From the NCBI RefSeq assembly GCF_011045215.1, contig NZ_CP049201.1: DNA of 64,000 nucleotides; one strand, 5' to 3'. The notes beneath the pieces were generated by a model. It was not told the origin of the DNA. It made no database searches and saw only the letters and a list, made by a program, of their open reading frames with translations. The position numbers and the translations under genes were made by a program. The DNA comes from Escherichia coli (GTDB lineage Bacteria; Pseudomonadota; Gammaproteobacteria; Enterobacterales; Enterobacteriaceae). Positions 40,286 to 58,030 of this stretch are shown here, in pieces (the first letter of the stretch is position 1; the number at the start of each line of letters is the position of its first letter).

Positions 40286-41680
40286 ATGCCATTTAAAAAA
40301 CTCTCCCGACGCACCTTCCTGACGGCAAGCTCCGCGCTTGCCTTCCTCCATACCCCTTTCGCTCGCGCACTTCCCGCCCGACAAAGCGTTAACATTAACG
40401 ACTACAACCCACACGACTGGATCGCCTCATTTAAACAAGCCTTCGGCGAAGGGCAAACGGTCGTCGTGCCTGCCGGATTGGTTTGCGACAATATCAACAC
40501 CGGCATCTTCATTCCTCCTGGCAAAACGTTACACATCCTTGGAAGCCTGCGCGGCAACGGCAGAGGGCGATTTGTCTTACAGGACGGTAGCCAGGTGACA
40601 GGGGAGGAGGGCGGCAGTATGCATAACATCACCCTGGATGTGCGTGGCTCTGACTGCACCATCAAAGGGCTGGCGATGAGCGGCTTTGGCCCGGTAACGC
40701 AGATTTATATCGGCGGCAAAAACAAACGGGTCATGCGCAACCTGACCATCGATAACCTCACTGTCAGCCACGCTAATTACGCCATCTTACGCCAGGGATT
40801 TCATAACCAGATAATCGGTGCCAACATCACCAATTGTAAGTTCAGCGACTTACAGGGCGATGCCATTGAATGGAACGTGGCGATTAACGACAGTGATATT
40901 TTGATATCTGACCATGTCATCGAGCGCATCAACTGTACCAACGGCAAAATCAACTGGGGCATTGGCATAGGCCTTGCGGGAAGCACTTACGATAATAATT
41001 ACCCGGAAGATCAGGCAGTGAAAAACTTTGTCGTGGCGAATATCACGGGATCGGATTGTCGGCAGTTGATCCATGTTGAAAATGGTAAACATTTTGTTAT
41101 TCGTAATATCAAAGCCCGCAATATCACGCCGGATTTCAGTAAGAAAGCAGGTATTGATAACGCCACGGTCGCTATTTACGGTTGTGATAATTTCGTGATT
41201 GATAATATTGAAATGATTAATAGCGCCGGGATGTTAATCGGCTATGGGGTAATTAAAGGCAAATATCTCTCGATACCGCAAAATTTCCGAGTGAATAATA
41301 TTCAACTGGATAATACCCACCTTGCTTACAAATTGCGCGGTATCCAAATCTCCGCCGGGAATGCTGTCTCCTTTGTGGCGCTGACTAACATTGAGATGAA
41401 GCGTGCGTCGCTGGAGTTACACAACAAACCGCAACATCTTTTTATGCGTAATATCAATGTGATGCAGGAATCCTCTGTTGGACCCGCATTGAGCATGAAC
41501 TTCGACATGCGCAAAGACGTTCGCGGCGTCTTTATGGCGAAAAAAGAAACACTGCTGTCTCTTGCAAATGTTCATGCGGTGAATGAAAGAGGGCAAAGCT
41601 CCGTCGATATCGACAGGATTAATCACCATATTGTTAATATGGAAAAGATTAACTTTAGATTGCCAGAACGGAGGGAGTAG
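40286..41680 (+). CDS. wcaM: Colanic acid biosynthesis protein WcaM
   Basis: 464 aa; twin-arginine-like N-terminus [15 protein letters not shown]; matches WcaM. Confidence 0.92.
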
Positions 41681-41837
41681 ATTTGCGACCATTCATAAAC
41701 TTACTGGATATAATGTTCTAAAAGATTATAATCCTCACACTAACTGTTAAAGCTGGGGCTGGGCAGCATTGACTACTCAGGGAAGGTACTCATCTTTATC
41801 TTGTGTTTCTTACGTAACAACCAGACTAAAGTGATTT

Positions 41838-42833
41838 ATGAACGATAACGTTTTGCTCATAGGAGCTTCCGGATTCGTAGGAACCCGACTACTTGAAACG
41901 GCAATTGCTGACTTTAATATCAAGAACCTGGACAAACAGCAGAGCCACTTTTATCCAGAAATCACACAGATTGGCGATGTTCGTGATCAACAGGCACTCG
42001 ACCAGGCGTTAGCCGGTTTTGACACTGTTGTGCTACTGGCAGCGGAACACCGCGATGACGTCAGCCCTACTTCTCTCTATTATGATGTCAATGTTCAGGG
42101 TACCCGCAATGTGCTGGCGGCCATGGAAAAAAATGGCGTTAAAAATATCATCTTTACCAGTTCCGTTGCTGTTTATGGTTTGAACAAACACAACCCTGAC
42201 GAAAACCATCCACACGACCCTTTCAACCACTACGGCAAAAGTAAGTGGCAGGCGGAGGAAGTGCTGCGTGAATGGTATAACAAAGCACCAACAGAACGTT
42301 CATTAACTATCATCCGTCCTACCGTTATCTTCGGTGAACGCAACCGCGGTAACGTCTATAACTTGCTGAAACAGATCGCTGGCGGCAAGTTTATGATGGT
42401 GGGAGCAGGGACTAACTATAAGTCCATGGCTTATGTTGGAAACATTGTTGAGTTTATCAAGTACAAACTGAAGAATGTTGCCGCAGGTTATGAGGTTTAT
42501 AACTACGTTGATAAGCCAGACCTGAACATGAACCAGTTGGTTGCTGAAGTTGAACAAAGCCTGAACAAAAAGATCCCTTCTATGCACTTGCCTTACCCAC
42601 TAGGAATGCTGGGTGGATATTGCTTTGATATCCTGAGCAAAATTACGGGCAAAAAATACGCTGTCAGCTCAGTGCGCGTGAAAAAATTCTGCGCAACAAC
42701 ACAGTTTGACGCAACGAAAGTGCATTCTTCAGGTTTTGTGGCACCGTATACGCTGTCGCAAGGTCTGGATCGAACACTGCAGTATGAATTCGTTCATGCC
42801 AAAAAAGACGACATAACGTTTGTTTCTGAGTAA
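41838..42833 (+). CDS. gne: NAD-dependent sugar epimerase of the Gne/Gnu type (UDP-GlcNAc / GlcNAc-PP-Und 4-epimerase)
   Basis: 331 aa; Rossmann motif LLIGASGFVGTRL; sits between wcaM and galF, as I recall for the O55/O157-type gne gene. Confidence 0.8.
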   Translation: MNDNVLLIGASGFVGTRLLETAIADFNIKNLDKQQSHFYPEITQIGDVRDQQALDQALAGFDTVVLLAAEHRDDVSPTSLYYDVNVQGTRNVLAAMEKNGVKNIIFTSSVAVYGLNKHNPDENHPHDPFNHYGKSKWQAEEVLREWYNKAPTERSLTIIRPTVIFGERNRGNVYNLLKQIAGGKFMMVGAGTNYKSMAYVGNIVEFIKYKLKNVAAGYEVYNYVDKPDLNMNQLVAEVEQSLNKKIPSMHLPYPLGMLGGYCFDILSKITGKKYAVSSVRVKKFCATTQFDATKVHSSGFVAPYTLSQGLDRTLQYEFVHAKKDDITFVSE

Positions 42834-43075
42834 TGCAGACGAGTCAGAGAAAAAAGGACCAGGTTGGACTACGATTATTCGGAAAGAGGTACTGATTAAA
42901 TTATCAGTATGCGGAATTCCGAGTAATCCGAGTAACCCAGATGCTGATGGTGTGTAGTGTTATTCTAAGGTTTAAGCAAAGTTATGCGGAACTAAGCTTT
43001 GGTATATAGCCATAACGTTTGGCTAACCTATGGCAATAATTTACGCACTATCAGCCACTTAGAGGTAGGAAAAGA

Positions 43076-43969
43076 ATGACGAATTTAAAAGCAGTTATAC
43101 CGGTAGCAGGTCTTGGGATGCATATGTTGCCTGCCACTAAGGCGATTCCCAAAGAGATGCTACCGATCGTCGACAAGCCAATGATTCAGTACATTGTTGA
43201 CGAGATTGTGGCTGCAGGGATCAAAGAAATCCTCCTGGTAACTCACGCGTCCAAGAACGCAGTCGAAAACCACTTCGACACCTCTTATGAATTAGAATCT
43301 CTCCTTGAACAGCGCGTGAAGCGTCAACTGCTGGCGGAAGTACAATCTATCTGTCCGCCGGGCGTGACCATTATGAACGTGCGTCAGGGTGAACCTTTAG
43401 GTTTAGGCCATTCCATTTTGTGTGCACGACCCGCCATTGGTGACAACCCATTTGTCGTGGTGCTGCCAGACGTTGTGATCGACGACGCCAGTGCCGACCC
43501 GCTGCGCTACAACCTTGCTGCCATGATTGCGCGTTTCAATGAAACGGGCCGTAGCCAGGTGCTGGCAAAACGTATGCCGGGTGACCTTTCTGAATACTCC
43601 GTTATTCAGACCAAAGAGCCGCTGGATCGTGAAGGCAAAGTCAGCCGCATTGTTGAATTTATCGAAAAACCGGATCAGCCGCAGACGCTGGACTCAGACA
43701 TCATGGCCGTTGGTCGCTATGTGCTTTCTGCCGATATTTGGCCGGAACTTGAACGCACTCAACCTGGTGCATGGGGACGTATCCAACTGACTGATGCCAT
43801 TGCTGAACTGGCGAAGAAACAGTCCGTTGATGCCATGCTGATGACTGGTGACAGCTACGACTGCGGTAAAAAAATGGGCTATATGCAGGCGTTTGTGAAG
43901 TATGGACTGCGCAACCTGAAAGAAGGGGCGAAGTTCCGTAAAGGGATTGAGAAGCTGTTAAGCGAATAA
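43076..43969 (+). CDS. galF: UTP-glucose-1-phosphate uridylyltransferase regulatory paralogue GalF
   Basis: 297 aa, matches GalF. Confidence 0.95.
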
Positions 43970-44227
43970 TGAAAATCTGACCGGATGTAACGGTTGATAA
44001 GAAAATTATAACGGCAGTGAAGATTCGTGGTGAAAGTAATTTGTTGCGAATATTCCTGCCGTTGTTTTATATAAACAATCAGAATAACAACGAGTTAGCA
44101 ATAGGATTTTAGTCAAAGTTTTCCAGGATTTTCCTTGTTTCCAGAGCGGATTGGTAAGACAATTAGCGTTTGAATTTTTCGAGTTTAGCGCGAGTAGGTA
44201 ACGCTAGTCACATCGTAGACATGTAAG

Positions 44228-44266
44228 CAGTGCTCTGGTAGCTGTAAAGCCAGGGGCGGTAGCATT
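44228..44266 (+). promoter_or_regulatory. JUMPstart element with variant ops site (GGCGGTAGCATT) in the O-antigen cluster leader
   Basis: cagtgctctggtagctgtaaagccaggggcggtagcattg, about 350 bp upstream of the first O-antigen gene; last ops positions differ from canonical GGCGGTAGCGTG. Confidence 0.75.
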
Positions 44267-44618
44267 GTTCTTGATATTTTTAAGTATAAAAATGACACAT
44301 AAAAATAAAATAATTAGTTATCGGTATGTTTTTAATTGTGTTATTATTGAAAAATATCACCATTAATTATTTAATGCGATAAAGGCCAAATAAATCACTC
44401 ATTTATTTCTACATAGGATAGGGGACTATCAGATGGGAATTAAATAAAAATCCAAGTGCTAAATATTTCAATCTTAAATTCCATTGTAAAAAGTTTAAGG
44501 GATTTTATTCTAAAAAAGAATTGGATGAATTGAAAGTTATTTTGAGCTTAATTTATTAAACTTGAAGTTTTTTTACTGAGTTTTTCTGAAAAATAATTTA
44601 TTGTTAATGGAGCCATAT

Positions 44619-45638
44619 ATGTCAATTTTAGTTACCGGAGGTTGTGGTTATATAGGTGTCCACACAATTTATACGTTAATTTCTCAGGGCTACGATGTTA
44701 TTGTACTGGATAACCTGACTAACTCATCAATAGAGTCATTAGAGAGAGTCAAGTTAATGACAAATCATAACATACCCTTTTATAAAGGAGATGTGGGGAA
44801 TAAAAAAATATTGGTAGACATATTCAATGAGCATCAAATAAAAGCGGTTATGCATTTTGCAGGCTTGAAATCAGTAAGTGAATCTATAAAAAAACCGATT
44901 GAATATTATTCAAGTAACGTAATGCAAACGTTATCACTAATATCTACAATGATAGAGTATAACGTAAAAAGCTTTATCTTTAGTTCATCTGCTACTGTAT
45001 ATGGTAAACCAAAGTTATGCCCTATAAATGAAACTCATCCTATTGGCAAAACTACAAATCCTTATGGAACATCAAAATTAATGATGGAGTTAATGTTGTC
45101 TGATTTGTGTAATGCATATGATGATTTTAATGTGACAATTTTACGATATTTTAATCCAATTGGTGCTCATGAATCAGGTAATATTGGTGAACATCCAAAC
45201 GGTATACCAAATAACCTATTTCCTTATCTTACAAAAGTTGCTATTGGAGAGTATCCTTATTTAAAAGTGTATGGTTGTGATTACCCAACGTCTGATGGTT
45301 CTGGTGTTCGAGATTATATTCATGTAGTTGATCTTGCTGAAGCACATGTAAAAGCTTTATCAAAAAATTCAGAGTCGACTGGGCTAAAAATTTATAATTT
45401 AGGAACCGGAAAAGGATATTCTGTACTCGAAGTTATAGAAGCTTTTGAAAAGATAACTGGAATCAAAATACCATATAAAATTATGCCTCGAAGGGATGGT
45501 GATGTTGCGGAGTGTTGGTCTGATAGCACGAAGGCAAATGATAAATTAGAATGGAAAGCAAACAGAGAATTATATGACATGATTAGAGACGCTTGGAATT
45601 GGCAATCAAAAAATCCTCATGGTTATGATAATACATGA
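44619..45638 (+). CDS. UDP-hexose 4-epimerase, GalE family
   Basis: Start taken at ATG 44619 after ggag RBS (track begins at TTG 44601); ILVTGGCGYIG Rossmann motif and YGTSK catalytic motif; AT-rich codon usage. Confidence 0.8.
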   Translation: MSILVTGGCGYIGVHTIYTLISQGYDVIVLDNLTNSSIESLERVKLMTNHNIPFYKGDVGNKKILVDIFNEHQIKAVMHFAGLKSVSESIKKPIEYYSSNVMQTLSLISTMIEYNVKSFIFSSSATVYGKPKLCPINETHPIGKTTNPYGTSKLMMELMLSDLCNAYDDFNVTILRYFNPIGAHESGNIGEHPNGIPNNLFPYLTKVAIGEYPYLKVYGCDYPTSDGSGVRDYIHVVDLAEAHVKALSKNSESTGLKIYNLGTGKGYSVLEVIEAFEKITGIKIPYKIMPRRDGDVAECWSDSTKANDKLEWKANRELYDMIRDAWNWQSKNPHGYDNT

Positions 45639-46003
45639 TGTTATAGTATATTCAATGAATATAATTTATGCTTTGGAGTAAAAGTTGTCACAGCGTTTTC
45701 TTGCAGAACTAAGATGTTTTTAGCATAATTAGACACAGAATTAAAAATATTATCAGGCCGTATCAGTACATATCTTCAGTATGCACTATCATATATTAAT
45801 ATGAGAAAATATTTGTATTTAAAATATGATGTTCTAATAAGATTAAATTAACTGCCTAGGATATTAAAAGCTAATTTGGACTAGCTTTATTAGATAAGTA
45901 AATCTAACAAAATATTACTATGTCCGATATGTTATACCACTATTAATGACATCATGTAATATTATTTTAATAAACTATTTTTTGATCGCAGAGGTAATTA
46001 TAA

Positions 46004-46399
46004 ATGAGAAGAGTTATCACCTTTGGAACATTCGACGTGTTTCATATTGGACATGTTAATATATTAAAAAGGGCGAAGGAGTTTGGTGATTTGCTGATTG
46101 TGGGAGTTTCATCCGATTCATTAAATTTTTCTAAAAAACAGCGTTATCCAATCTATAGCCAGGAGGAGCGCATTGAGATTATATCCTCACTTAAGTTTGT
46201 AGATCATGTCTTTATAGAAGAATCTTTAGATCTTAAGTTAGAATATATTAGAAAGTATGAGGCAAATTTACTTGTAATGGGAGATGATTGGAAGGGCAGA
46301 TTTGACTGGGTTAAAGATGAGTGCGAAGTTATTTATTTGCCCAGAACACCATCGATATCAACTACCGAGATTATAGAAATTGTCCGGAGAATAAAATGA
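46004..46399 (+). CDS. Glycerol-3-phosphate cytidylyltransferase (TagD/TarD-like; makes CDP-glycerol)
   Basis: 131 aa; ITFGTFDVFHIGHVNIL (HxGH nucleotidyltransferase motif) and ...MGDDWKGRFDW...EVIYLPRTPSISTTEI, closely resembling Bacillus TagD. Confidence 0.85.
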   Translation: MRRVITFGTFDVFHIGHVNILKRAKEFGDLLIVGVSSDSLNFSKKQRYPIYSQEERIEIISSLKFVDHVFIEESLDLKLEYIRKYEANLLVMGDDWKGRFDWVKDECEVIYLPRTPSISTTEIIEIVRRIK

Positions 46400-46471
46400 T
46401 AACTCATTTGTTGATAGTGATTTATATTGTATAATTAATATTATGTAAAATGATATATATGGCAAATACAA

Positions 46472-47773
46472 ATGACGTCATGTAATAACTTTAAAAAGTA
46501 TAAAACATTATCTTTATTATCCGTGTGTTTATCCTCTATTCGTGTCTTTTTGGGGCCAATAACATTACTTGTACTAGCCAAAAACCTTTCCACTGAGGAA
46601 CTAGGATTTTATTATGCTTTTTTTTCGTTAACAGCAATGGCACAGTTGCTGGAAGTTGGGATGTCTAGCGTATTGAAACAGTATTATAGCCATTCTTATG
46701 CTATTCATGATATCAGTGAAAAAAATATAAAAATATCGAACTATTTTAACTTTTCAATCTATTGGTATTTAATATTATCAATACTTTTTTTTATATTGGG
46801 AGGGGTGGTGTCATATGTTATGTTTAATGATTATAACGGAATAGTTAACTGGAAATTACCATGGTTTTTTTTGCTTTTTGTTTCATGTACTAATTTATTA
46901 GTATTGCCCTTAAATGCAATGCTTGATGGAACACAAAGGCAACAATTATTGATGAAAGCTAATATTGTTAGTCAGTTAATGATAGCGATATCATTATGGC
47001 TGACAATTTATTTAGGCTTGGGGCTATATTCTCTTGGTCTATCACAATTGGTAGGAATATTATTTTTTTTACTGTCAGTTTTTATATTTAATAAATGTAG
47101 ATTCCAGTTCATAGAAATACATAAAAAAAACTTTTCATTTAAAACAGTATTTAATGAGTTGTGGCCGTTATTGAAAAAAACTAGTATCGTATGGTTTCTT
47201 GGTTATTTCTACTGGAACGGTTTTAATATAATATCATTTAAATATCTTGGTGCAGAGATCGCAGGCTTCGTTGGTATGTCGATGTCAATTATGCGAGCGG
47301 GACAGAATATAGCAATATCTATTTTGAATTCTCAGATGACATTGTATGCAAGCAATATTGCGATGGGAAAGATTGATGAAGCAAGAAGAGTATTTAAGAA
47401 ATATTTTATCATTTCATTTTTGTTATTAATTTCTGGTTACTCAATATTTTATATTTTCTATTATGTTAAGCCTGATTTTTTCTTGTTTAAGAAGGTCCTG
47501 CCCTTAGAACAAATGATTTATGTGTCAATATTTTTTGCCTTTACATTTATAATATCAGGAACTGAAACTTTTATTCGTTGTTTTAAAGTGGAGAAGTTCG
47601 TTATCACTCAGACAATCAATTCAATTTTAACTCCATTCTTATTTGTTTTGGGGCTTAACTTGCATTATCAATATTTTTGTTTACCAATAATATCTGTACT
47701 GATAGTGTCAATCTTAACGTTATATATAAGTCGACGTTTTTACACGGGGTATTCGAATGCAAAAAATACTTAA
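46472..47773 (+). CDS. wzx: O-antigen flippase Wzx (polysaccharide biosynthesis protein family)
   Basis: 433 aa, many predicted TM helices; N-terminal Wzx-like segment FLGPITLLVLAKNLSTEELGFYY. Confidence 0.7.
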   Translation: MTSCNNFKKYKTLSLLSVCLSSIRVFLGPITLLVLAKNLSTEELGFYYAFFSLTAMAQLLEVGMSSVLKQYYSHSYAIHDISEKNIKISNYFNFSIYWYLILSILFFILGGVVSYVMFNDYNGIVNWKLPWFFLLFVSCTNLLVLPLNAMLDGTQRQQLLMKANIVSQLMIAISLWLTIYLGLGLYSLGLSQLVGILFFLLSVFIFNKCRFQFIEIHKKNFSFKTVFNELWPLLKKTSIVWFLGYFYWNGFNIISFKYLGAEIAGFVGMSMSIMRAGQNIAISILNSQMTLYASNIAMGKIDEARRVFKKYFIISFLLLISGYSIFYIFYYVKPDFFLFKKVLPLEQMIYVSIFFAFTFIISGTETFIRCFKVEKFVITQTINSILTPFLFVLGLNLHYQYFCLPIISVLIVSILTLYISRRFYTGYSNAKNT

Positions 47774-48929
47774 GTATATAATGAAATTAATGATGTGGAG
47801 TATTTATCCTATCGGTTTTTTAATTAAAAGGGATAAAAGCATTTGGCTTTTCGGTAGTTATAGCGGTTTTACTGATAATAGTCGATATTTATTTGAATCT
47901 ACCACTAAAAAGAATGATGTAAGATGCATTTGGATATCTGATGATATAAAGCTGATAAAAAAAATTAGATGTAAAGGTTATGAGGCATATTACAAATATA
48001 GTGTTAAAGGTATATATTTTTGTTATATTGCAAAGGTGTATATATATTCAAATTATGTATCAACGATAAACTTTTATACATCTGCAGGCGCGGTATTGGT
48101 AAATTTATGGCATGGGACGCCACTTAAAAAAATCGAATATGATATATCTAAATCTCCTTTATTTAATTATTTTAAAGGAGCCTCATTTATAATTAAAATA
48201 TTGATGCCTGAGAAACATAAAAAGTGTAATTTCATTCTTGCTCCGAGTCAATTTGTTTATGATTATTCATTTAAAAGTGCATTTAGGGTGTATGATATGC
48301 AATATGCCATTATTGCTGATCCACCTAGGATATCTAATCTCTTATCAAGAGCCTATCACAAAGTGAATAATGATAAGAATTCAATTAAAAAAACAAAGAA
48401 AACATTTTTATATGCACCAACATGGAGAGATGATCGCTCGGATTTTATAAGTATTTCAGGTTTAAATTTCAACGAAATTAATAATTTTCTATTAAAAAAT
48501 AACGCGTATTTACAAATCAGGTTGCATCCTAATACAACTTTAAATATTGATATGAGTGAAATGGAAAATATTCACATTGTTGATAATTATGAACCAGCTG
48601 AAGATAGTATGCTAAATTCTGATTTTCTCATAACTGATTACTCTTCAATATATTTTGACTACCTCTATCTTAATAGACCTATAATCTTCTTCCCATTTGA
48701 TCTTGAAAAATATACCGCATCGCGTGATTTTTATTTGAGTTATAACGAAGCAACTCCAGGGGTTAAAGTATATAATCAAGGTGAATTAATCCAGGAGATG
48801 GATAACCTATTGAAGGGCATTGACAATTGGATGAACTATCGAAAGGAGCTTGCTGAAAAATTCTGTTCGCTCGAAAGACGTAACGATGATTATATCATAA
48901 AAAAAATTAAAAAAGGTGTATCTGAATGA
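47757..48929 (+). CDS. CDP-glycerol glycerophosphotransferase (TagF/TagB-like)
   Basis: 390 aa; YAPTWRDD motif typical of the TagF family; directly downstream of the tagD-like gene. Confidence 0.7.
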   Translation: MQKILKYIMKLMMWSIYPIGFLIKRDKSIWLFGSYSGFTDNSRYLFESTTKKNDVRCIWISDDIKLIKKIRCKGYEAYYKYSVKGIYFCYIAKVYIYSNYVSTINFYTSAGAVLVNLWHGTPLKKIEYDISKSPLFNYFKGASFIIKILMPEKHKKCNFILAPSQFVYDYSFKSAFRVYDMQYAIIADPPRISNLLSRAYHKVNNDKNSIKKTKKTFLYAPTWRDDRSDFISISGLNFNEINNFLLKNNAYLQIRLHPNTTLNIDMSEMENIHIVDNYEPAEDSMLNSDFLITDYSSIYFDYLYLNRPIIFFPFDLEKYTASRDFYLSYNEATPGVKVYNQGELIQEMDNLLKGIDNWMNYRKELAEKFCSLERRNDDYIIKKIKKGVSE

Positions 48930-49732
48930 ATCTTGGTAAAATTATAAATTATATAGAGTCTAAGGTTATTAGTATAAATTTTGATTTCAATCATTTAGCT
49001 GGCTATTTAAGTCGTGATGAGCGAGATAAAATAACCTTAAAACATCTAAGCAGTATTATTGATAGAAGAAAAAAACATCCATCTGTTTCTGCTATATACA
49101 GAGTGAAAAATGGAGCTCAATTTATTGAACTATCTATTCTTTCAATAGCTGCATTTTGTCGTGAAATAATTATTGTAGACAATAATTCAACAGATGATAC
49201 TTTACTAATAGTAGAACGTCTTAAAAGCGAACTTCAGGAAATATGTGAAATTAAAATCTATCAGTATACTAGTCAGGTCGCTTTGGCGGGTAAGAATTAT
49301 AATGATGAAATCAGAAAATATCCTGAGCGGTCATTGGCAAAATATTATAACTATGCTTTTTCATTGGCAACATCGGAATTCTTAATGAAGTGTGATGCTC
49401 ATTATATATTCACACCTGCGGGTATAGATAGTATACAACGAAAATTAATTTCAAATCATAAGTCAGTTGATGTTATATGTTATCGTGGCACCGAAGTATT
49501 TGGAGCCATGTTAGATTGTGAACCCTATCTAATACGGAAAAATAGTTTTAAATATTACGACACTCAATATTTTGAACGTTTGACATTAAACAAGAAGAGA
49601 AGTTTTATTCAAAAAATTAAAGGGAGAATTTCATCACCTTGCTTTATACATGTTAAACGTTTGAGTTATGTTAAGTCAGTTCATCTATGTGAAATAAACC
49701 CTGTGGAGTATATGTATAAAAATGATAATTAA
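48926..49732 (+). CDS. Putative glycosyltransferase (GT-A fold, family 2-like)
   Basis: 268 aa; SAIYRVKNGAQFIELSILSIAAF...IIVDNNSTDDT resembles the GT2 N-terminal signature; start overlaps previous stop. Confidence 0.55.
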   Translation: MNLGKIINYIESKVISINFDFNHLAGYLSRDERDKITLKHLSSIIDRRKKHPSVSAIYRVKNGAQFIELSILSIAAFCREIIIVDNNSTDDTLLIVERLKSELQEICEIKIYQYTSQVALAGKNYNDEIRKYPERSLAKYYNYAFSLATSEFLMKCDAHYIFTPAGIDSIQRKLISNHKSVDVICYRGTEVFGAMLDCEPYLIRKNSFKYYDTQYFERLTLNKKRSFIQKIKGRISSPCFIHVKRLSYVKSVHLCEINPVEYMYKNDN

Positions 49733-50951
49733 ATTACATAATATTTGCGTAACTGGGAAGAATGATAATCATGACGGGTCTTTTCGCCTACAAATATACT
49801 ATTTCCTATGTATTTTAATATCTATTCTATTTTTCAGTGCATACCCTTTGGTATCGTTACCTCTTATAGCTCTTTCAAGTCCATTTGTTAATAACTATGC
49901 AAGATGGACTATGTCACTATTAATGATTTTTTATTTTATTTTATTATACTCATCTATTACGCCTTTTTCAGACATAGCAGAGTATATGCTTATCTATAGA
50001 GGAGTAACCGATGTTGATATATTTAGTTTTGGTAGGTTTGGTGGTGGAATCGAGATCTTCATATTAGCTCTCATGCGCTTGGTGTATTTTATATCCGATG
50101 GCAATGAATATCTTTTTTTATTTTTTTGCTTTACTATTATTCAAATATTTCTTTTTGTATTTTGTTATCGTGTTAATCGTCGTTTATCATGTTTATATTT
50201 TTTAGTATTTAATCTTTCATATGCTTATTATTCTTTTAATGCATATTTTTTACGAAGCATGTTATCCGCGGTTTTTTTAATTAATGCCTTTTTGTTTATT
50301 TCTAAAAAAAAGTATGTGTATTATTTTTTTGCAATTATATCGCATTTGTCATCCGTCCTATATATAGGAGTATGGGAATATTTAAGGGCAAGAAATAAAA
50401 AATTAAAAATATGGGTTGCTAGTATGGCAACTGTAACTATTATATGTTGTTTTATTTTTTTGCGAGATAGGATTGAATTTTATTTATTTAAAAGCTCTGG
50501 AAATTCGATGGGGTATGTACAAGTTGTAACCATTGCTTTTAATTATATTTTGTGTTTGTTGTTATTATTCTTTTCAAATGCAAGAAAAGAATTGTCAACT
50601 CAAAGAATAATATTGTTTTTGACTTTTTTCTTTATCTTGGCCTTGGTAACTTATAAAATACCACAAAATTTTGGGATAAGAATCTCTATTTTGCTTTACG
50701 CACTATCACCGTTTTTCTTGTATCCACTTCTTACCTCCTGCAATGTAACAATATTAAATAAGATCAAATCGTTGTCTCTTTATATGATTGTTAACTGTTG
50801 CTTTCTCTTTGTTGTGTTATATAAGGGCGATGATATTTCAAATCACATGCGTTCAAATCCATTAGATACTAGTTTTATTGATTTATTAATAAAGGACATA
50901 GATTATTTTGTTAAAGGATATTATCCAGTAATATATTCTAGAGACGAATAA
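49722..50951 (+). CDS. wzy: O-antigen polymerase Wzy (putative)
   Basis: 409 aa, very hydrophobic and F/Y/I/L-rich polytopic membrane protein with no strong family signature, as is typical for Wzy. Confidence 0.6.
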   Translation: MIIKLHNICVTGKNDNHDGSFRLQIYYFLCILISILFFSAYPLVSLPLIALSSPFVNNYARWTMSLLMIFYFILLYSSITPFSDIAEYMLIYRGVTDVDIFSFGRFGGGIEIFILALMRLVYFISDGNEYLFLFFCFTIIQIFLFVFCYRVNRRLSCLYFLVFNLSYAYYSFNAYFLRSMLSAVFLINAFLFISKKKYVYYFFAIISHLSSVLYIGVWEYLRARNKKLKIWVASMATVTIICCFIFLRDRIEFYLFKSSGNSMGYVQVVTIAFNYILCLLLLFFSNARKELSTQRIILFLTFFFILALVTYKIPQNFGIRISILLYALSPFFLYPLLTSCNVTILNKIKSLSLYMIVNCCFLFVVLYKGDDISNHMRSNPLDTSFIDLLIKDIDYFVKGYYPVIYSRDE

Positions 50952-51238
50952 GGGACATTGTTTAGATGTGCAAGGTGGAAATGTATCAAAGAAAATTGTA
51001 GTTACTACAGTAACAGTTACTTTGTAAAGTATATTTCGGTAAAACCTGCAATAACCAAGGGCGCTAAACTCCCTAACAACTCCGCTAATGGAATTAGAAT
51101 TAGAGAGTGACGAGTTTAAATATGAGAGTTTAGGGTAATAGAACAAATTTTTAAGTTTATAGAGTAAGAACAGATTAAGTTAAGTTTGCTTATTTTATAA
51201 TAAGCTCTTTCTTAAACCATATATAGTATTATCTACAA

Positions 51239-51961
51239 TTGAGTGATATCAAATTGAATATTGAGATCGGTTTATCAGCGCTGAATTCAGGAATTTATAA
51301 AATTAAATTTCGTAATGATTATAATTATCTTATTATTCATCAGATTACTGATGAATGTGATTACTCTGATTATGTGGCATCTTTCCCTGAAAATGTTAGA
51401 TACATATCTTCATATGAGTCTGGGTTGTCCAAAAGTCGAAATATGGCCATTGAAAATGCAAAATACGATTATCTTTGGTTAATGGATGATGATATGGAAA
51501 TAGATGATGCGGCTTGGGATTATCTGACGAAATTTATTAGTGATTATAAAAATAGTCCTTTGCTGGTTGTTTCTCATTCATTGGCAAAAAAGTATAATAA
51601 TGAAAAAGAGAGGATTAAAAGATTGAATCCTATAACTGCTGCGGGAATTTGTTCTGTAGATATGATATTAAAAATTTCAGCACTGGACGGTATTAGATTT
51701 AACTCAGATTTTGGGTTAGGAGCTAAATATCCTTCCGGTGAGGAATATATTTTTGCATGTGATTTGATGAGAGCTGGAAAAAAAATATATAAATCTAATA
51801 AAATTTGCTCGAATCATCCTGACACGACTTCTAGTGATAAAACATATCCAAATAAAGACGCTTTTAGTACGAAGAAGAAAATGTTTAAAGTCGCAAATGG
51901 GAAATACTTAGGGAGCATTTTGTATATTGCTTTTGTTGTCAAAAAATTACTATATAAATAA
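51239..51961 (+). CDS. Putative glycosyltransferase family 2 (possible TTG start)
   Basis: 240 aa; DxD-like motif in KYDYLWLMDDDMEIDD; ORF opens right after an in-frame stop at 51224 and first in-frame start is TTG 51239, so start is uncertain. Confidence 0.55.
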   Translation: MSDIKLNIEIGLSALNSGIYKIKFRNDYNYLIIHQITDECDYSDYVASFPENVRYISSYESGLSKSRNMAIENAKYDYLWLMDDDMEIDDAAWDYLTKFISDYKNSPLLVVSHSLAKKYNNEKERIKRLNPITAAGICSVDMILKISALDGIRFNSDFGLGAKYPSGEEYIFACDLMRAGKKIYKSNKICSNHPDTTSSDKTYPNKDAFSTKKKMFKVANGKYLGSILYIAFVVKKLLYK

Positions 51962-52005
51962 TAATTTACATAATTTTATTTTTATATAATCTATTTATTG
52001 TCTAG

Positions 52006-53052
52006 ATGCCTATGAAAAAAGTATATATTTTTATTGATGATATATCCCGTTCCGGTGGCACAGAACGAGTTGCGACATTTCTCTCTAATCAAATGTTTTT
52101 ATCCGGATTTTCAGTCACACTAATATCATTAGCATTAGAAGGAGGGAATACATACTATCCGCTGCAACCCGGAGTCAAGTTAGAGGTTTTAAGTGAATCA
52201 ACATTATACGAATTGTTTCTTTTTTTAAGAAAAAATTCATGTGATGTGTTGATTTCTGTTTCCATGGGTAGTTTATCGTTTAAGCTTGCATGTTTACATT
52301 TTCTATTACGATTAAAATCTCGTCTTATTTTAAGTGAGCATGTGGCTTTTGAATCCTCATCAAAGTTCATTCGTTCTCTAAAATGGTTAAGCTATCAATT
52401 CGCTGATGATCTTGTATTATTGACAAAGCATGATTATAAATTGCTTAAGTCAAATGTTAGGGCTCATACTCACGTTATCAATAATGCTAGTGGTTTCGAA
52501 CAATTATCTGAATCTGTTCTTATTCAAAAGCAAAAGATAGTATTAGCAGTGGGACGTTTAACTTATCAGAAGGGGTTTGATAGGTTAATTCGTATTTGGG
52601 CTTCCATATCGGACAATCACGGTTGGGTTTTACGGATCGTAGGGGATGGAGAATTGCGTTCAGAACTACAAAAAATGATTGTTGACCTGAATGTTACACA
52701 TAATGTCCAACTTATACCAGCAACAAAATGTATAGAACAAGAATATACTAATGCAGCTATATTAGCTATGACTTCTCGCTATGAAGGACTACCATTGGTT
52801 CTTATAGAGGCTAAATCTTTTGGATTAGCAGCAGTCGCTTTTGATTGTAAAACAGGTCCTGCTGAAATTATTCATCACAAAAAAGATGGGTTCTTGATTA
52901 CTGAAGATAATGAACCTGAATTTTCATATCGTCTTCAGTCTTTAATGATCGATGATGTTTATCGAAACAAAATACAAAGTATGGCCTTAAGAAATGCTAA
53001 TGATTATTCTGTTGAAAAAATAAGTCGGCAGTGGTTGGAGTTAATATCATGA
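52006..53052 (+). CDS. Glycosyltransferase family 4 (GT-B fold)
   Basis: 348 aa; C-terminal motif RYEGLPLVLIEAKSFGLAAVAFDCKTGPAEII typical of GT4 donor-binding region. Confidence 0.75.
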   Translation: MPMKKVYIFIDDISRSGGTERVATFLSNQMFLSGFSVTLISLALEGGNTYYPLQPGVKLEVLSESTLYELFLFLRKNSCDVLISVSMGSLSFKLACLHFLLRLKSRLILSEHVAFESSSKFIRSLKWLSYQFADDLVLLTKHDYKLLKSNVRAHTHVINNASGFEQLSESVLIQKQKIVLAVGRLTYQKGFDRLIRIWASISDNHGWVLRIVGDGELRSELQKMIVDLNVTHNVQLIPATKCIEQEYTNAAILAMTSRYEGLPLVLIEAKSFGLAAVAFDCKTGPAEIIHHKKDGFLITEDNEPEFSYRLQSLMIDDVYRNKIQSMALRNANDYSVEKISRQWLELIS

Positions 53053-53837
53053 GTAGTTATGAAACAGTATCTATAATCATGCCTACGTTTAATGCTGCAT
53101 CTTATATTTCGTATAGCATCATTTCTGTAATTGAACAATCATATAATGATTGGCATTTATATATAATAGATGATGGTTCAACTGACAATACCGCACATGA
53201 AATATCTAATTTTACCGATCTGCGAATAACATATGTAATGCTTCCTATCAATAGTGGAGTTGCAAATGCTAGAAATATAGGTATTAAAATGGCAAAAGGG
53301 AAATTTATTGCGTTTCTTGATAGTGATGACATTTGGGAAAAAGAAAAATTATCCTTGCAAATCCCTTTACTCGAAAAAGGATATGATGTAGTTTGTTCAA
53401 ATTATGCCATTTTTAAAAATGAACCAAAAAAAATAATCGGTTCTCGAACTGCACCACAACAGATCACCTATTCGCGTTTGTTACGCGGTAATTGTATCGG
53501 CAATTTAACGGGGATTTATAACCGAGAACGACTAGGTAAATGCTTACAGGAAGAATGTGGACATGAAGACTATCTAATGTGGTTACAGTTGGTAAAGCTT
53601 TCTGGTAGCGCTTATTGCATACAGAAAAATTTAGCCCGGTATCGAGTTACGGAACATTCAGTATCATCAAATAAATTAAAAGCAGCATTTTGGCAATGGA
53701 ATATATATCGTAAAAAACTCAAGCTTAATATTTTGAGCAGTATATATTACTGGTGTAATTATTCTTTTTACGCATTTATGCACATGTTAAAAATGAAGTT
53801 TCATGTGAATAAAAGTAATCTAATATATAAGAGATAA
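53049..53837 (+). CDS. Glycosyltransferase family 2
   Basis: Start set at ATG 53049 (MSSYETVSIIMPTFN; track begins at 53031); classic GT2 N-terminus ...IIDDGSTDNT; ATGA overlap with upstream gene. Confidence 0.8.
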   Translation: MSSYETVSIIMPTFNAASYISYSIISVIEQSYNDWHLYIIDDGSTDNTAHEISNFTDLRITYVMLPINSGVANARNIGIKMAKGKFIAFLDSDDIWEKEKLSLQIPLLEKGYDVVCSNYAIFKNEPKKIIGSRTAPQQITYSRLLRGNCIGNLTGIYNRERLGKCLQEECGHEDYLMWLQLVKLSGSAYCIQKNLARYRVTEHSVSSNKLKAAFWQWNIYRKKLKLNILSSIYYWCNYSFYAFMHMLKMKFHVNKSNLIYKR

Positions 53838-54085
53838 CAAGATATATAGTGTTAATTGTCACCTTCATTATATAAAGTAGATTAATTTGCGATGGTGACT
53901 TTTACATTAACATCGAAGTAAATATTGAGATAAATATTATACAATATTAATAATATGTTATGAATTTAAATTTTATTTTGAATTGCCCAATAATATTTTT
54001 TTAAATTATTACTTTAAGTAGTCATTTTAGGTTAATATATTACCGTTAAGCAAACCATGCAGTATATTACTGACAGGAGTAAACA

Positions 54086-55492
54086 ATGTCAAAGCAACAG
54101 ATTGGCGTCGTCGGTATGGCAGTGATGGGGCGCAACCTTGCGCTCAACATCGAAAGCCGTGGTTATACCGTCTCTATTTTCAACCGTTCCCGTGAGAAGA
54201 CGGAAGAAGTGATTGCCGAAAATCCAGGCAAGAAATTGGTTCCTTACTTTACGGTAAAAGAGTTTGTTGAATCTCTGGAAACGCCTCGTCGCATCCTGTT
54301 AATGGTGAAAGCAGGTGCAGGCACGGATGCTGCTATTGATTCTCTCAAGCCATACCTCGATAAAGGTGACATCATCATTGATGGTGGTAACACCTTCTTC
54401 CAGGACACCATTCGTCGTAACCGTGAGCTGTCTGCAGAAGGTTTTAACTTTATCGGTACTGGTGTTTCCGGTGGTGAAGAAGGTGCACTGAAAGGACCTT
54501 CCATCATGCCTGGTGGCCAGAAAGAAGCCTATGAACTGGTTGCACCGATCCTGACCAAAATCGCCGCAGTGGCTGAAGATGGGGAGCCATGTGTTACCTA
54601 TATTGGTGCCGATGGTGCTGGTCACTATGTGAAGATGGTTCACAACGGTATTGAATACGGAGATATGCAACTGATTGCTGAAGCCTATTCTCTGCTAAAA
54701 GGTGGCCTGAACCTCACCAACGAAGAACTGGCGCAGACCTTTACCGAGTGGAATAACGGTGAACTGAGCAGCTACCTGATCGACATCACCAAAGATATCT
54801 TCACCAAAAAAGATGAAGACGGTAACTACCTGGTTGATGTGATTCTGGATGAAGCTGCAAACAAAGGTACGGGTAAATGGACCAGCCAGAGTGCGCTGGA
54901 TCTCGGCGAACCGCTGTCGCTGATTACCGAGTCTGTGTTTGCACGTTATATCTCTTCTCTGAAAGATCAGCGCGTTGCCGCATCTAAAGTTCTCTCTGGC
55001 CCGCAAGCGCAGCCAGCAGGCGACAAAGGTGAGTTCATCGAAAAAGTTCGCCGTGCGTTGTATCTGGGCAAAATCGTTTCTTACGCCCAGGGCTTCTCTC
55101 AGCTGCGTGCGGCGTCTGAAGAGTACAACTGGGATCTGAACTACGGCGAAATCGCGAAGATTTTCCGTGCTGGCTGCATCATCCGTGCGCAGTTCCTGCA
55201 GAAAATCACCGATGCTTATACCGAAAATCCGCAGATCGCTAACTTGCTGTTGGCTCCATACTTCAAGCAAATTGCCGATGACTATCAGCAGGCGCTGCGT
55301 GATGTTGTTGCTTATGCAGTACAGAACGGTATCCCGGTTCCCACCTTCGCCGCTGCGGTTGCCTATTATGACAGCTACCGTGCCGCTGTTCTGCCTGCGA
55401 ACCTGATCCAGGCACAGCGTGACTATTTCGGTGCACATACTTATAAGCGCATTGATAAAGAAGGTGTGTTCCATACTGAATGGCTGGATTAA
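54086..55492 (+). CDS. gnd: 6-phosphogluconate dehydrogenase (decarboxylating)
   Basis: 468 aa; [15 protein letters not shown] Rossmann motif; matches Gnd. Confidence 0.96.
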
Positions 55493-55517
55493 TCTTATTT
55501 AACTAACAATAAATTGA

Positions 55518-55549
55518 GGCCTGGCGTATATTGCGCCGGGCTTTTTTTT
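55518..55549 (+). terminator. Rho-independent terminator downstream of gnd
   Basis: GC-rich hairpin ggcctggcg...cgccgggc followed by an 8-T run. Confidence 0.8.
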
Positions 55550-55730
55550 GCCAATTATCTTATAGACTAAATTTCACTGCTTAATATTAACTTAATAAAT
55601 ATCAGCTATTCTTATAAAGAAAATCTGAATTGTTTTTCGTTGCGTTGACCATCTGACAACGTAGCGTTAAAACTTTTAGCTCTTATCAGGATGCTAAAAA
55701 CATCATGATTCACAGTTAAGTTAATTCTGA

Positions 55731-56906
<1,176 letters not shown>

Positions 56907-56916
56907 CATCATGTTA

Positions 56917-56945
56917 TCAGGGCGATTTTCGCCCTGATTCTCTTA
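56917..56945 (+). terminator. Terminator-like hairpin downstream of ugd
   Basis: Perfect inverted repeat tcagggcga-ttt-tcgccctga followed by T-rich sequence. Confidence 0.6.
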
Positions 56946-57049
56946 TGTTCCCTTTGTAATAATTCATTTTTTTTATCATTTATCCTATAGCATTCATGGC
57001 GATTATCGCTAAACTATGGCGACTTAAAATTATTTCGTCCGTTAGGGTA

Positions 57050-58030
57050 ATGATGAGAGTAGAAAATAATAATGTTTCTGGGCAAAACCATGACCCGGAA
57101 CAGATTGATTTGATTGATTTACTGGTGCAGTTGTGGCGTGGCAAGATGACAATTATCATCTCTGTCATTGTGGCTATTGCCCTGGCTATAGGGTATCTGG
57201 CCGTTGCCAAAGAAAAGTGGACTTCCACAGCTATCGTTACTCAACCTGATGTGGGGCAAATCGCTGGTTATAACAATGCCATAAATGTGATTTATGGTTC
57301 GGCAGCGCCGAAAGTGTCTGAGATCCAGTCGATGTTAATTGGTCGTTTCAGCACGACATTTTCTGCATTAGCAGAAACGCTGGATAATCAGGAAGAACCT
57401 GAAAAACTGACCATTGAGCCTACCGTTAAAAATCAGTCATTACCTTTAGCGGTTTCTTATGTGGGTGAAACACCTGAAGGTGCGCAGAAACAGCTGGCGA
57501 AGTATATCCAGCAAGTTGACGACCAGGTAAATGAAGAACTGGAACAAGACCTGAAAGACAACATCGCGCTGCAAATGAAAAACTTGCAGGATTCTCTGAA
57601 GACCCAGGAAGTGGTTGCGCAGGAGCAGAAAGATCTGCGTATCCGTCAGATTCAGGAAGCGTTGCAGTATGCGAATCAGGCGCAGGTGACAAAGCCGCAG
57701 ATTCAGCAGACACAGGACGTAACCCAAGATACTATGTTCCTTTTGGGGAGCGAAGCGCTGGAGTCGATGATTAAGCACGAGGCGACTCGTCCGTTGGTGT
57801 TCTCATCAAACTACTATCAGACTCGTCAAAACCTGCTGGATATCGACAATCTTGACGTTGATAAACTTGATATTCATGCTTACCGCTATGTAATGAAACC
57901 GACGTTACCTATTCGTCGCGATAGCCCGAAAAAGGCAATTACCTTGATTCTGGCGGTGCTGCTGGGCGGCATGGTTGGCGCGGGGATTGTGCTGGGGCGT
58001 AACGCTCTGCGTAATTACAACGCGAAGTAA
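57050..58030 (+). CDS. wzzB: O-antigen chain-length determinant Wzz (polysaccharide co-polymerase)
   Basis: Track ORF 56996..58030; start set at ATG 57050 (MMRVENNNVSGQNHDPEQIDLIDL) after taggg RBS; two TM segments flanking a coiled-coil periplasmic region. Confidence 0.9.
   Translation: MMRVENNNVSGQNHDPEQIDLIDLLVQLWRGKMTIIISVIVAIALAIGYLAVAKEKWTSTAIVTQPDVGQIAGYNNAINVIYGSAAPKVSEIQSMLIGRFSTTFSALAETLDNQEEPEKLTIEPTVKNQSLPLAVSYVGETPEGAQKQLAKYIQQVDDQVNEELEQDLKDNIALQMKNLQDSLKTQEVVAQEQKDLRIRQIQEALQYANQAQVTKPQIQQTQDVTQDTMFLLGSEALESMIKHEATRPLVFSSNYYQTRQNLLDIDNLDVDKLDIHAYRYVMKPTLPIRRDSPKKAITLILAVLLGGMVGAGIVLGRNALRNYNAK

Follow-up and report, generated by a model that had tools for sequence, protein, structure and literature searches.

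An intact O81 O-antigen gene cluster of Escherichia coli with a predicted pathway for glycerol phosphate addition

We analyzed a 64,000-nucleotide stretch of the Escherichia coli contig NZ_CP049201.1 (RefSeq assembly GCF_011045215.1), hereafter the window, in which an O-antigen locus lies between galF and gnd. The block of interest, 44619-53837, runs from the ATG of a galE/gne-type epimerase gene to the stop codon of the last glycosyltransferase gene. It comprises nine genes, encoding this epimerase, a TagD-like glycerol-3-phosphate cytidylyltransferase, the flippase Wzx, a TagF-like cytidine diphosphate (CDP)-glycerol glycerophosphotransferase, the polymerase Wzy and four glycosyltransferases (Table 1). 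An initial annotation, made from the letters of the DNA, had listed the TagD-like and TagF-like proteins, wzx, wzy and the four glycosyltransferases, and NCBIfam and Pfam matches uphold that list. Judged by its sequence, the block is the O-antigen gene cluster of E. coli serogroup O81.

The composition of the block, described at first as visibly AT-rich for all nine genes between galF and gnd, was computed here. Its guanine plus cytosine (G+C) content is 30.3%, versus 51.8% across the remainder of the window. All 500-base segments from 44000 to 53999 have 27-35% G+C and the flanking segments 42-58%, with values of 50.8% for galF and 49.7% for gnd. At third codon positions, G+C reaches 20-33% in the cluster genes and 51-54% in galF and gnd. 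The nine open reading frames are all on the plus strand, contain no internal stop and have lengths divisible by three; neighboring frames mostly abut or overlap, by 4-11 bases. Their boundaries are those given by RefSeq on near-identical DNA. Since the nine genes are coding sequences with strong database support, chance is not an issue.

Between galF and galE/gne lies a 649-base leader that carries a JUMPstart element with its ops octamer. The ops sequence recruits RfaH, which leads to antitermination of long polysaccharide operons. On the coding strand, a terminator scan found no terminator-like site between cluster genes; its single plus-strand match overlaps the ops element in the leader. 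A promoter scan was uninformative in DNA this AT-rich (62 sites versus 65 expected). Two long non-coding gaps interrupt the otherwise tightly packed operon, at 45639-46003 (365 bases) and 50952-51253 (302 bases). Both are very AT-rich, and no open reading frame remnant or terminator was recognized in either. They may mark places where pieces of different origin were joined when the cluster was assembled.

The serogroup was addressed by a megablast comparison of positions 44000-54100 with 5,426 complete E. coli genomes. This 10.1-kb query is covered over 100% of its length in 10 complete genomes, at 99.6-100% identity and with the same nine genes, and in all ten RefSeq assigns both wzx and wzy to the “O81 family”. 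The other 3,647 matching genomes share little beyond the conserved leader (among the matches listed, only the first 270-283 bases). In addition, the public protein collection already contains exact copies of Wzx, Wzy, the TagF-like protein and the glycosyltransferases. The exact record of Wzx (QIF13137.1 / WP_164475632.1) is named “O81 family O-antigen flippase”. That of the 409-amino-acid (aa) Wzy is named “O81 family O-antigen polymerase”, in agreement with RefSeq on a 100%-identical locus. A test independent of annotation was made in silico with the O81-specific wzx primers from the supplement of PMC7403468. They match without mismatch at 47256-47273 (plus strand) and 47484-47503 (minus strand), and the resulting polymerase chain reaction product of 248 bp has the published size (PMC7403468). 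Hence, the “O81 family” loci of the ten genomes, the exact Wzx and Wzy records and the primer match assign the serogroup, left open in the initial annotation pending wzx and wzy typing, to O81.

The O81 cluster is already catalogued, with the same nine genes in the same order, and we see no difference of substance. The cluster of the window is real and intact but ordinary, and it adds nothing beyond the published O81. The structure and gene cluster of O81 are the subject of Zdorovenko et al. 2018 (Biochemistry (Moscow) 83:534-541; PMID 29738687), whose title reports a gtr prophage in strain HS3-104. In papers citing strain HS3-104, that strain is assigned to O81 and the structure is not stated.

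Table 1 Features of the O81 locus and of its surroundings in the window.
Feature	Product or description	Coordinates	Strand	Basis or remark
gnu	undecaprenyl diphosphate-N-acetylglucosamine (Und-PP-GlcNAc) 4-epimerase	41838-42833	+	RefSeq annotation of matching genes
galF	conserved upstream boundary of O-antigen locus	43076-43969	+	RefSeq annotation of matching DNA
JUMPstart element	cagtgctctggtagctgtaaagccaggggcggtagc	44228-44264	+	contains ops octamer GGCGGTAG at 44255-44262
galE/gne	uridine diphosphate (UDP)-hexose 4-epimerase, 339 aa	44619-45638	+	NCBIfam GalE models
tagD-like	glycerol-3-phosphate cytidylyltransferase, TagD-like, 131 aa	46004-46399	+	alignment to TagD/TarD; motifs
wzx	O81 O-unit flippase, 433 aa	46472-47773	+	exact record, primer match, WZX_like
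tagF-like	CDP-glycerol glycerophosphotransferase, TagF-like, 382 aa, single catalytic module	47781-48929	+	PF04464; alternative ATG 47757
glycosyltransferase	weak GT2/GT-A match, 268 aa	48926-49732	+	PF00535 E 1.1e-6, residues 60-193
wzy	O81 O-antigen polymerase, 409 aa	49722-50951	+	exact record; Pfam EpsG PF14897
glycosyltransferase	GT-A fold, 235 aa, TTG start	51254-51961	+	PF00535 E 2.3e-8, partial; alternative TTG 51239
glycosyltransferase	GT4 (GT-B fold, retaining family), 346 aa	52012-53052	+	NCBIfam PglH/PglJ best matches
glycosyltransferase	GT2 (inverting family), TuaG-like, 262 aa	53049-53837	+	NCBIfam TuaG
gnd	conserved downstream boundary of O-antigen locus	54086-55492	+	RefSeq annotation of matching DNA
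wzzB	O-antigen chain-length regulator working with Wzy	57053-58030	+	annotation of 100% identical O81-genome DNA; downstream of ugd

The TagD-like protein shows full-length similarity to two solved proteins, Bacillus subtilis TagD (1COZ; residues 1-127 of 131, E 8e-37, 47% identity) and Staphylococcus aureus TarD (2B7L; E 4e-34, 46% identity). It matches PF01467 in Pfam. Its HxGH motif reads HIGH (residues 14-17), and its RTxxISTT motif reads RTPSISTT (residues 114-121), where B. subtilis TagD has RTEGISTT. The TagD-like protein is thus predicted to make CDP-glycerol.

The TagF-like protein matches PF04464 from residue 17 to 366 (E 3.9e-58 in Pfam), corresponding to model positions 12-354 of 367. 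It aligns with residues 357-717 of Staphylococcus epidermidis TagF (3L7I, E 1e-24) in such a way that His111 (in LWHGTPLK) and His249 (in RLHPN) align with the catalytic TagF residues His444 and His584. The second-best chain, 3L7J, has an asparagine at the His444 position. No transmembrane segment was predicted in the TagF-like protein by a hydropathy scan. We place it in PF04464 at the family level only. The possibility that the tagD-like and tagF-like genes are pseudogenes was checked: both are intact and keep their catalytic motifs, which supports the earlier suggestion that glycerol phosphate is built into this O-antigen.

Concerning the assembly machinery, Wzx matches the NCBIfam model WZX_like (E 7e-13) and shows at least nine hydrophobic segments in the hydropathy scan. 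Wzy matches EpsG (PF14897, E 1.7e-10 in Pfam) and shows 11 hydrophobic segments; no NCBIfam family was found for it. PMC10920833 assigns the O81 Wzy (BAQ01252.1) to GT123, an inverting CAZy family of clan GT-C3. None of the nine cluster genes encodes an ABC transporter (wzm/wzt), and wzzB is found downstream. The multi-span Wzx and Wzy, the presence of wzzB and the lack of an ABC-transporter gene in the cluster agree with the Wzx/Wzy-dependent pathway proposed in the initial annotation.

The product of the first cluster gene scores above the cut-offs of two NCBIfam GalE models, with 443.7 bits for TIGR01179 (cut-off 262.3) and 448.6 bits for NF007956 (cut-off 394). In the alignment, its Cys299 occupies the position of Tyr299 of E. 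coli GalE, and its alignment score is higher with the 1LRK chain, which has a cysteine at 299, than with wild-type GalE chains. 1LRK is the Y299C mutant of E. coli GalE. This substitution makes GalE accept UDP-GlcNAc and UDP-N-acetylgalactosamine (UDP-GalNAc), like human GALE. A plain second copy of GalE was set aside in view of the cysteine at the Tyr299 gatekeeper position. Because of Cys299 and of the better score with 1LRK, the first cluster gene probably encodes a Gne-type dual epimerase, acting on UDP-glucose/galactose and on UDP-GlcNAc/GalNAc. Such an enzyme, making UDP-GalNAc, hints at the presence of GalNAc in the O unit. The gnu gene is located between wcaM and galF, in a stretch of 42-46% G+C. 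Its role as an Und-PP-GlcNAc 4-epimerase is described in PMC7685785. Gnu could convert the initiating sugar of the O unit to GalNAc.

As to the four glycosyltransferases, a protein identical to the 268-aa enzyme is named “glycosyltransferase” by RefSeq. The 235-aa enzyme has a DDD motif at residue 78 and the RefSeq name “glycosyltransferase family A protein”; no NCBIfam family was found for it. The 346-aa enzyme, a “glycosyltransferase family 4 protein” in RefSeq, matches PglH (E 2e-42) and PglJ (E 1e-27), two alpha-1,4-GalNAc transferases, with both scores under the curated cut-offs. The 262-aa enzyme matches TuaG (E 8e-63, 212 bits, under the cut-off of 400), has a DSD motif at residue 91 and is 40% identical to a GT2 enzyme from the glycerol-phosphate-type O locus of strain BS90R-A. 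An O unit of about four to five sugars, as estimated at the outset, fits the four glycosyltransferases plus WecA, a figure obtained by gene counting and not a measured structure.

Overall, it is highly probable that the locus is a functional O81 O-antigen biosynthesis operon that adds glycerol phosphate via CDP-glycerol. The data show which locus this is, that its genes are intact, to which families they belong and that catalytic residues are conserved; all enzymatic steps, the sugar count and the site of glycerol phosphate are inferred from this. The roles of RfaH at ops, of WecA in initiation, of Gnu in an optional epimerization and of Wzx, Wzy, Wzz and WaaL are established. Transcription would start upstream of the JUMPstart/ops leader and proceed through all nine genes. 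WecA, encoded elsewhere, would form Und-PP-GlcNAc, which Gnu may epimerize to Und-PP-GalNAc. The Cys299 epimerase would supply UDP-galactose and probably UDP-GalNAc, and the four glycosyltransferases would lengthen the lipid-linked unit to about five sugars on the cytoplasmic face of the membrane. In parallel, the TagD-like enzyme would convert cytidine triphosphate and sn-glycerol 3-phosphate to CDP-glycerol. From this precursor, the single-module TagF-like enzyme would transfer one glycerol phosphate to a hydroxyl of the Und-PP-linked unit. The finished O unit would then be moved across the membrane by Wzx and polymerized by Wzy, presumably through an equatorial linkage since the O81 Wzy belongs to the inverting family GT123. 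WzzB would set the chain length, and WaaL would ligate the chain to lipid A-core.

Several observations weigh against this reading. The TagD-like protein scores 133.8 bits with its best NCBIfam model, TIGR01518, under the equivalog cut-off of 165.4, which accounts for its RefSeq name being given at the family level only. The TagF-like protein scores 130.8 bits with TarF, 43.4 with TarB and 74.9 with TarL, for NCBIfam cut-offs of 550, 500 and 1000, respectively. With scores so far below the cut-offs, homology fixes neither the acceptor nor the addition of one versus many units. In addition, the window does not extend to waaL, wecA or any gtr genes. Finally, no statement that O81 contains glycerol phosphate was found in the literature text searched, the structure paper itself lying outside that text; a FEMS review names O81 only once, in its citation of that paper. 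In favor of the reading, the O81 polysaccharide is reportedly called glycerophosphate-containing in the abstract of the structure paper, so that wzx and wzy would not match a serogroup lacking this constituent. Treatment with 48% hydrofluoric acid is said there to yield an oligosaccharide, not a dephosphorylated polysaccharide, which would favor a phosphodiester in the backbone.

The position of glycerol phosphate is the point on which two versions of the pathway differ. In the one that we slightly favor, glycerol phosphate belongs to the main chain. The TagF-like enzyme would cap the O unit with glycerol phosphate and Wzy would join the reducing-end sugar of the growing chain to a hydroxyl of this glycerol, giving teichoic-acid-like repeats of oligosaccharide-glycerol-phosphate. 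Consistent with this, PMC10920833 includes O81 among the serogroups for which the linkage made by the polymerase has no unambiguous assignment. The sequence, however, gives no distinction between the main chain and a side chain, and we regard as a serious but less probable possibility that glycerol phosphate decorates one sugar as a side chain of a purely glycosidic backbone. The single-module 382-aa TagF-like enzyme, devoid of polymerase extension, fits one addition per unit, but this architecture suits the main-chain version equally well. The initial annotation had itself spoken of an O-antigen either decorated or linked with glycerol phosphate. Were glycerol phosphate in the backbone, the O81 Wzy would glycosylate a glycerol hydroxyl and not a sugar, and the TagF-like protein would act as a capping enzyme that makes a single addition and has an acceptor specificity of its own; this corollary is advanced tentatively, with nearly even prospects. 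To our knowledge, neither a Wzy glycosylating a glycerol hydroxyl nor single-addition capping by a TagF-like enzyme has been reconstituted for any O-antigen system.

Two further explanations concern the pathway as a whole. The TagD/TagF-like pair might handle not glycerol phosphate but the phosphate of another alditol or head group, ribitol phosphate and phosphoethanolamine being examples. The score under the equivalog cut-off leaves room for this, the third-best solved match of the TagD-like protein is an ethanolamine-phosphate cytidylyltransferase (E 2e-23), and the ribitol-phosphate polymerase TarL is among the matches of the TagF-like protein. However, TagD/TarD lead the other matches by 14 orders of magnitude, in alignments that run the whole length of proteins of the same 130-aa size, and the top family match of the TagF-like protein is the glycerol-phosphate transferase TarF. 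Moreover, the cluster holds no ribitol-phosphate dehydrogenase or TarI/TarJ-type gene, and TagD-like proteins 74-77% identical to that of O81 occur in the O28ac/O42 and BS90R-A O-antigen loci and in the capsule-type locus of ATCC 25922. A different head group is therefore hardly credible. It is also improbable, though a little less so, that the cluster is present but unexpressed or unproductive in this strain, which would then have a rough or altered phenotype and no O81 antigen. Annotated frameshifts in wzx and wzy of two O81 genomes from horses, as well as the location of the required wecA and waaL outside the window, would agree with this. On the other hand, none of the nine genes is disrupted in the window, which also has the JUMPstart/ops leader. 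The frameshifts of the horse strains are scattered over an AT-rich stretch, and assembly errors may well explain them. Glycerol phosphate addition via CDP-glycerol by a functional O81 operon is thus retained.

Glycerol phosphate has precedents in E. coli O-antigens. According to paper titles, O28ab, O33, O37, O100 and O130 contain it. The locus of E. coli O28ac/O42 (NCTC9699) resembles that of O81 in its galF-gnd position, its Wzx/Wzy dependence and its tagD-like/wzx/tagF-like gene order. The two TagD-like proteins are 77% identical, but the TagF-like proteins only 27%, and the two loci show distant or no relationship in wzx, wzy and the glycosyltransferases. In addition, O28ac/O42 has glf and an acyltransferase gene and no galE/gne, whereas O81 has galE/gne. 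The pattern extends to the loci of BS90R-A and ATCC 25922: across the three loci, the TagD-like proteins are 74-77% identical to that of O81 and the TagF-like proteins 26-29%. This fits a shared precursor pathway feeding transferases that would each be specific for their acceptor.

As compared to the Gram-positive TagD/TarD and TagF/TarF, the O81 enzymes share, as far as their sequence tells, the CDP-glycerol chemistry, the motifs and the catalytic histidines. However, the O81 transferase is a single module of 382 aa, while the TagF chain of solved structure has 729 aa. Its presumed action is the addition of one unit to an oligosaccharide carried on Und-PP, whereas the teichoic acid enzymes build poly(glycerol phosphate). 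Export also differs, since O81 would use Wzx/Wzy toward lipid A-core and Gram-positive wall teichoic acid an ABC transporter toward peptidoglycan. A TagF-like catalytic domain is likewise found in the Gram-negative group 2 capsule polymerase Cps3D (PDB 8QOY), at E 2e-15. In ATCC 25922, a 1234-aa TagF-like protein is 26% identical to that of O81 and its TagD-like neighbor 74%. Unlike the O81 single module, Cps3D and the ATCC 25922 protein are multidomain polymerases of 1149-1234 aa. Besides, the ATCC 25922 genes adjoin ABC-transporter genes at another chromosomal site, while those of O81 lie in a Wzx/Wzy operon.

The capsule-type locus of ATCC 25922 (L004, 8001-13500) also illustrates a naming problem. 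Its TagD-like gene, which adjoins that of the 1234-aa TagF-like protein, is annotated “pantoate--beta-alanine ligase”. In other genomes, a TagD-like homolog is annotated “FAD synthase family protein”. Both labels look like RefSeq misnamings of glycerol-3-phosphate cytidylyltransferase.

The strain is typed here as O81. This serogroup is rare, with 10 occurrences among the 5,426 complete E. coli genomes. According to PMC7403468, O81 has been reported among Shiga-toxin-producing E. coli from cattle. In PMC4728585, O81 is the proposed receptor of the LtfB tail-fiber protein of the T5-like phages DT57C and DT571/2. Beyond annotation, the importance of the locus is small: glycerol-phosphate O-antigens are already established in E. 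coli, as a minority class, and the O81 locus opens no new question. It could nonetheless serve to study the biochemistry of TagF-like transferases that make a single addition, and the acceptor specificity of Wzy. If glycerol phosphate is indeed in the backbone, the O81 locus would be a defined test case and not a new kind of system.

The surroundings of the cluster were compared with other O81 genomes. Against strain LR-03, 37 of the 42 mismatches over positions 41000-57100 lie at 41167-43468 and, among the mismatches listed, only three lie beyond 43468, up to 55352. Within the cluster, the two strains differ by two single-nucleotide polymorphisms: that of the tagD-like gene is synonymous, that of wzx non-synonymous. 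The 10 kb downstream, from gnd to hisD, are 100% identical in other O81 genomes; for the 22 kb upstream, the best identity to any genome is 97.8%. The pattern suggests recombination with a junction inside galF, in which the cluster was transferred together with its downstream flank as a single block.

Two O81 genomes from Thoroughbred horse faeces (CP091836 and CP091839) are annotated with frameshifted wzx and wzy, carry shortened tagF-like or glycosyltransferase genes and have a region 12-14 bases shorter. Assembly errors in AT-rich DNA or homopolymers are a more likely origin of these frameshifts than real decay of the cluster. None of them is present in the window.

Upstream of the cluster, some short element of positions 22001-44000 recurs across E. 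coli genomes, with a median of 31 matches in each. It is probably a repeat of the repetitive extragenic palindromic (REP) or bacterial interspersed mosaic element (BIME) type, located in an intergenic gap of the colanic-acid genes such as cpsB-cpsG or wzxC-wcaK.

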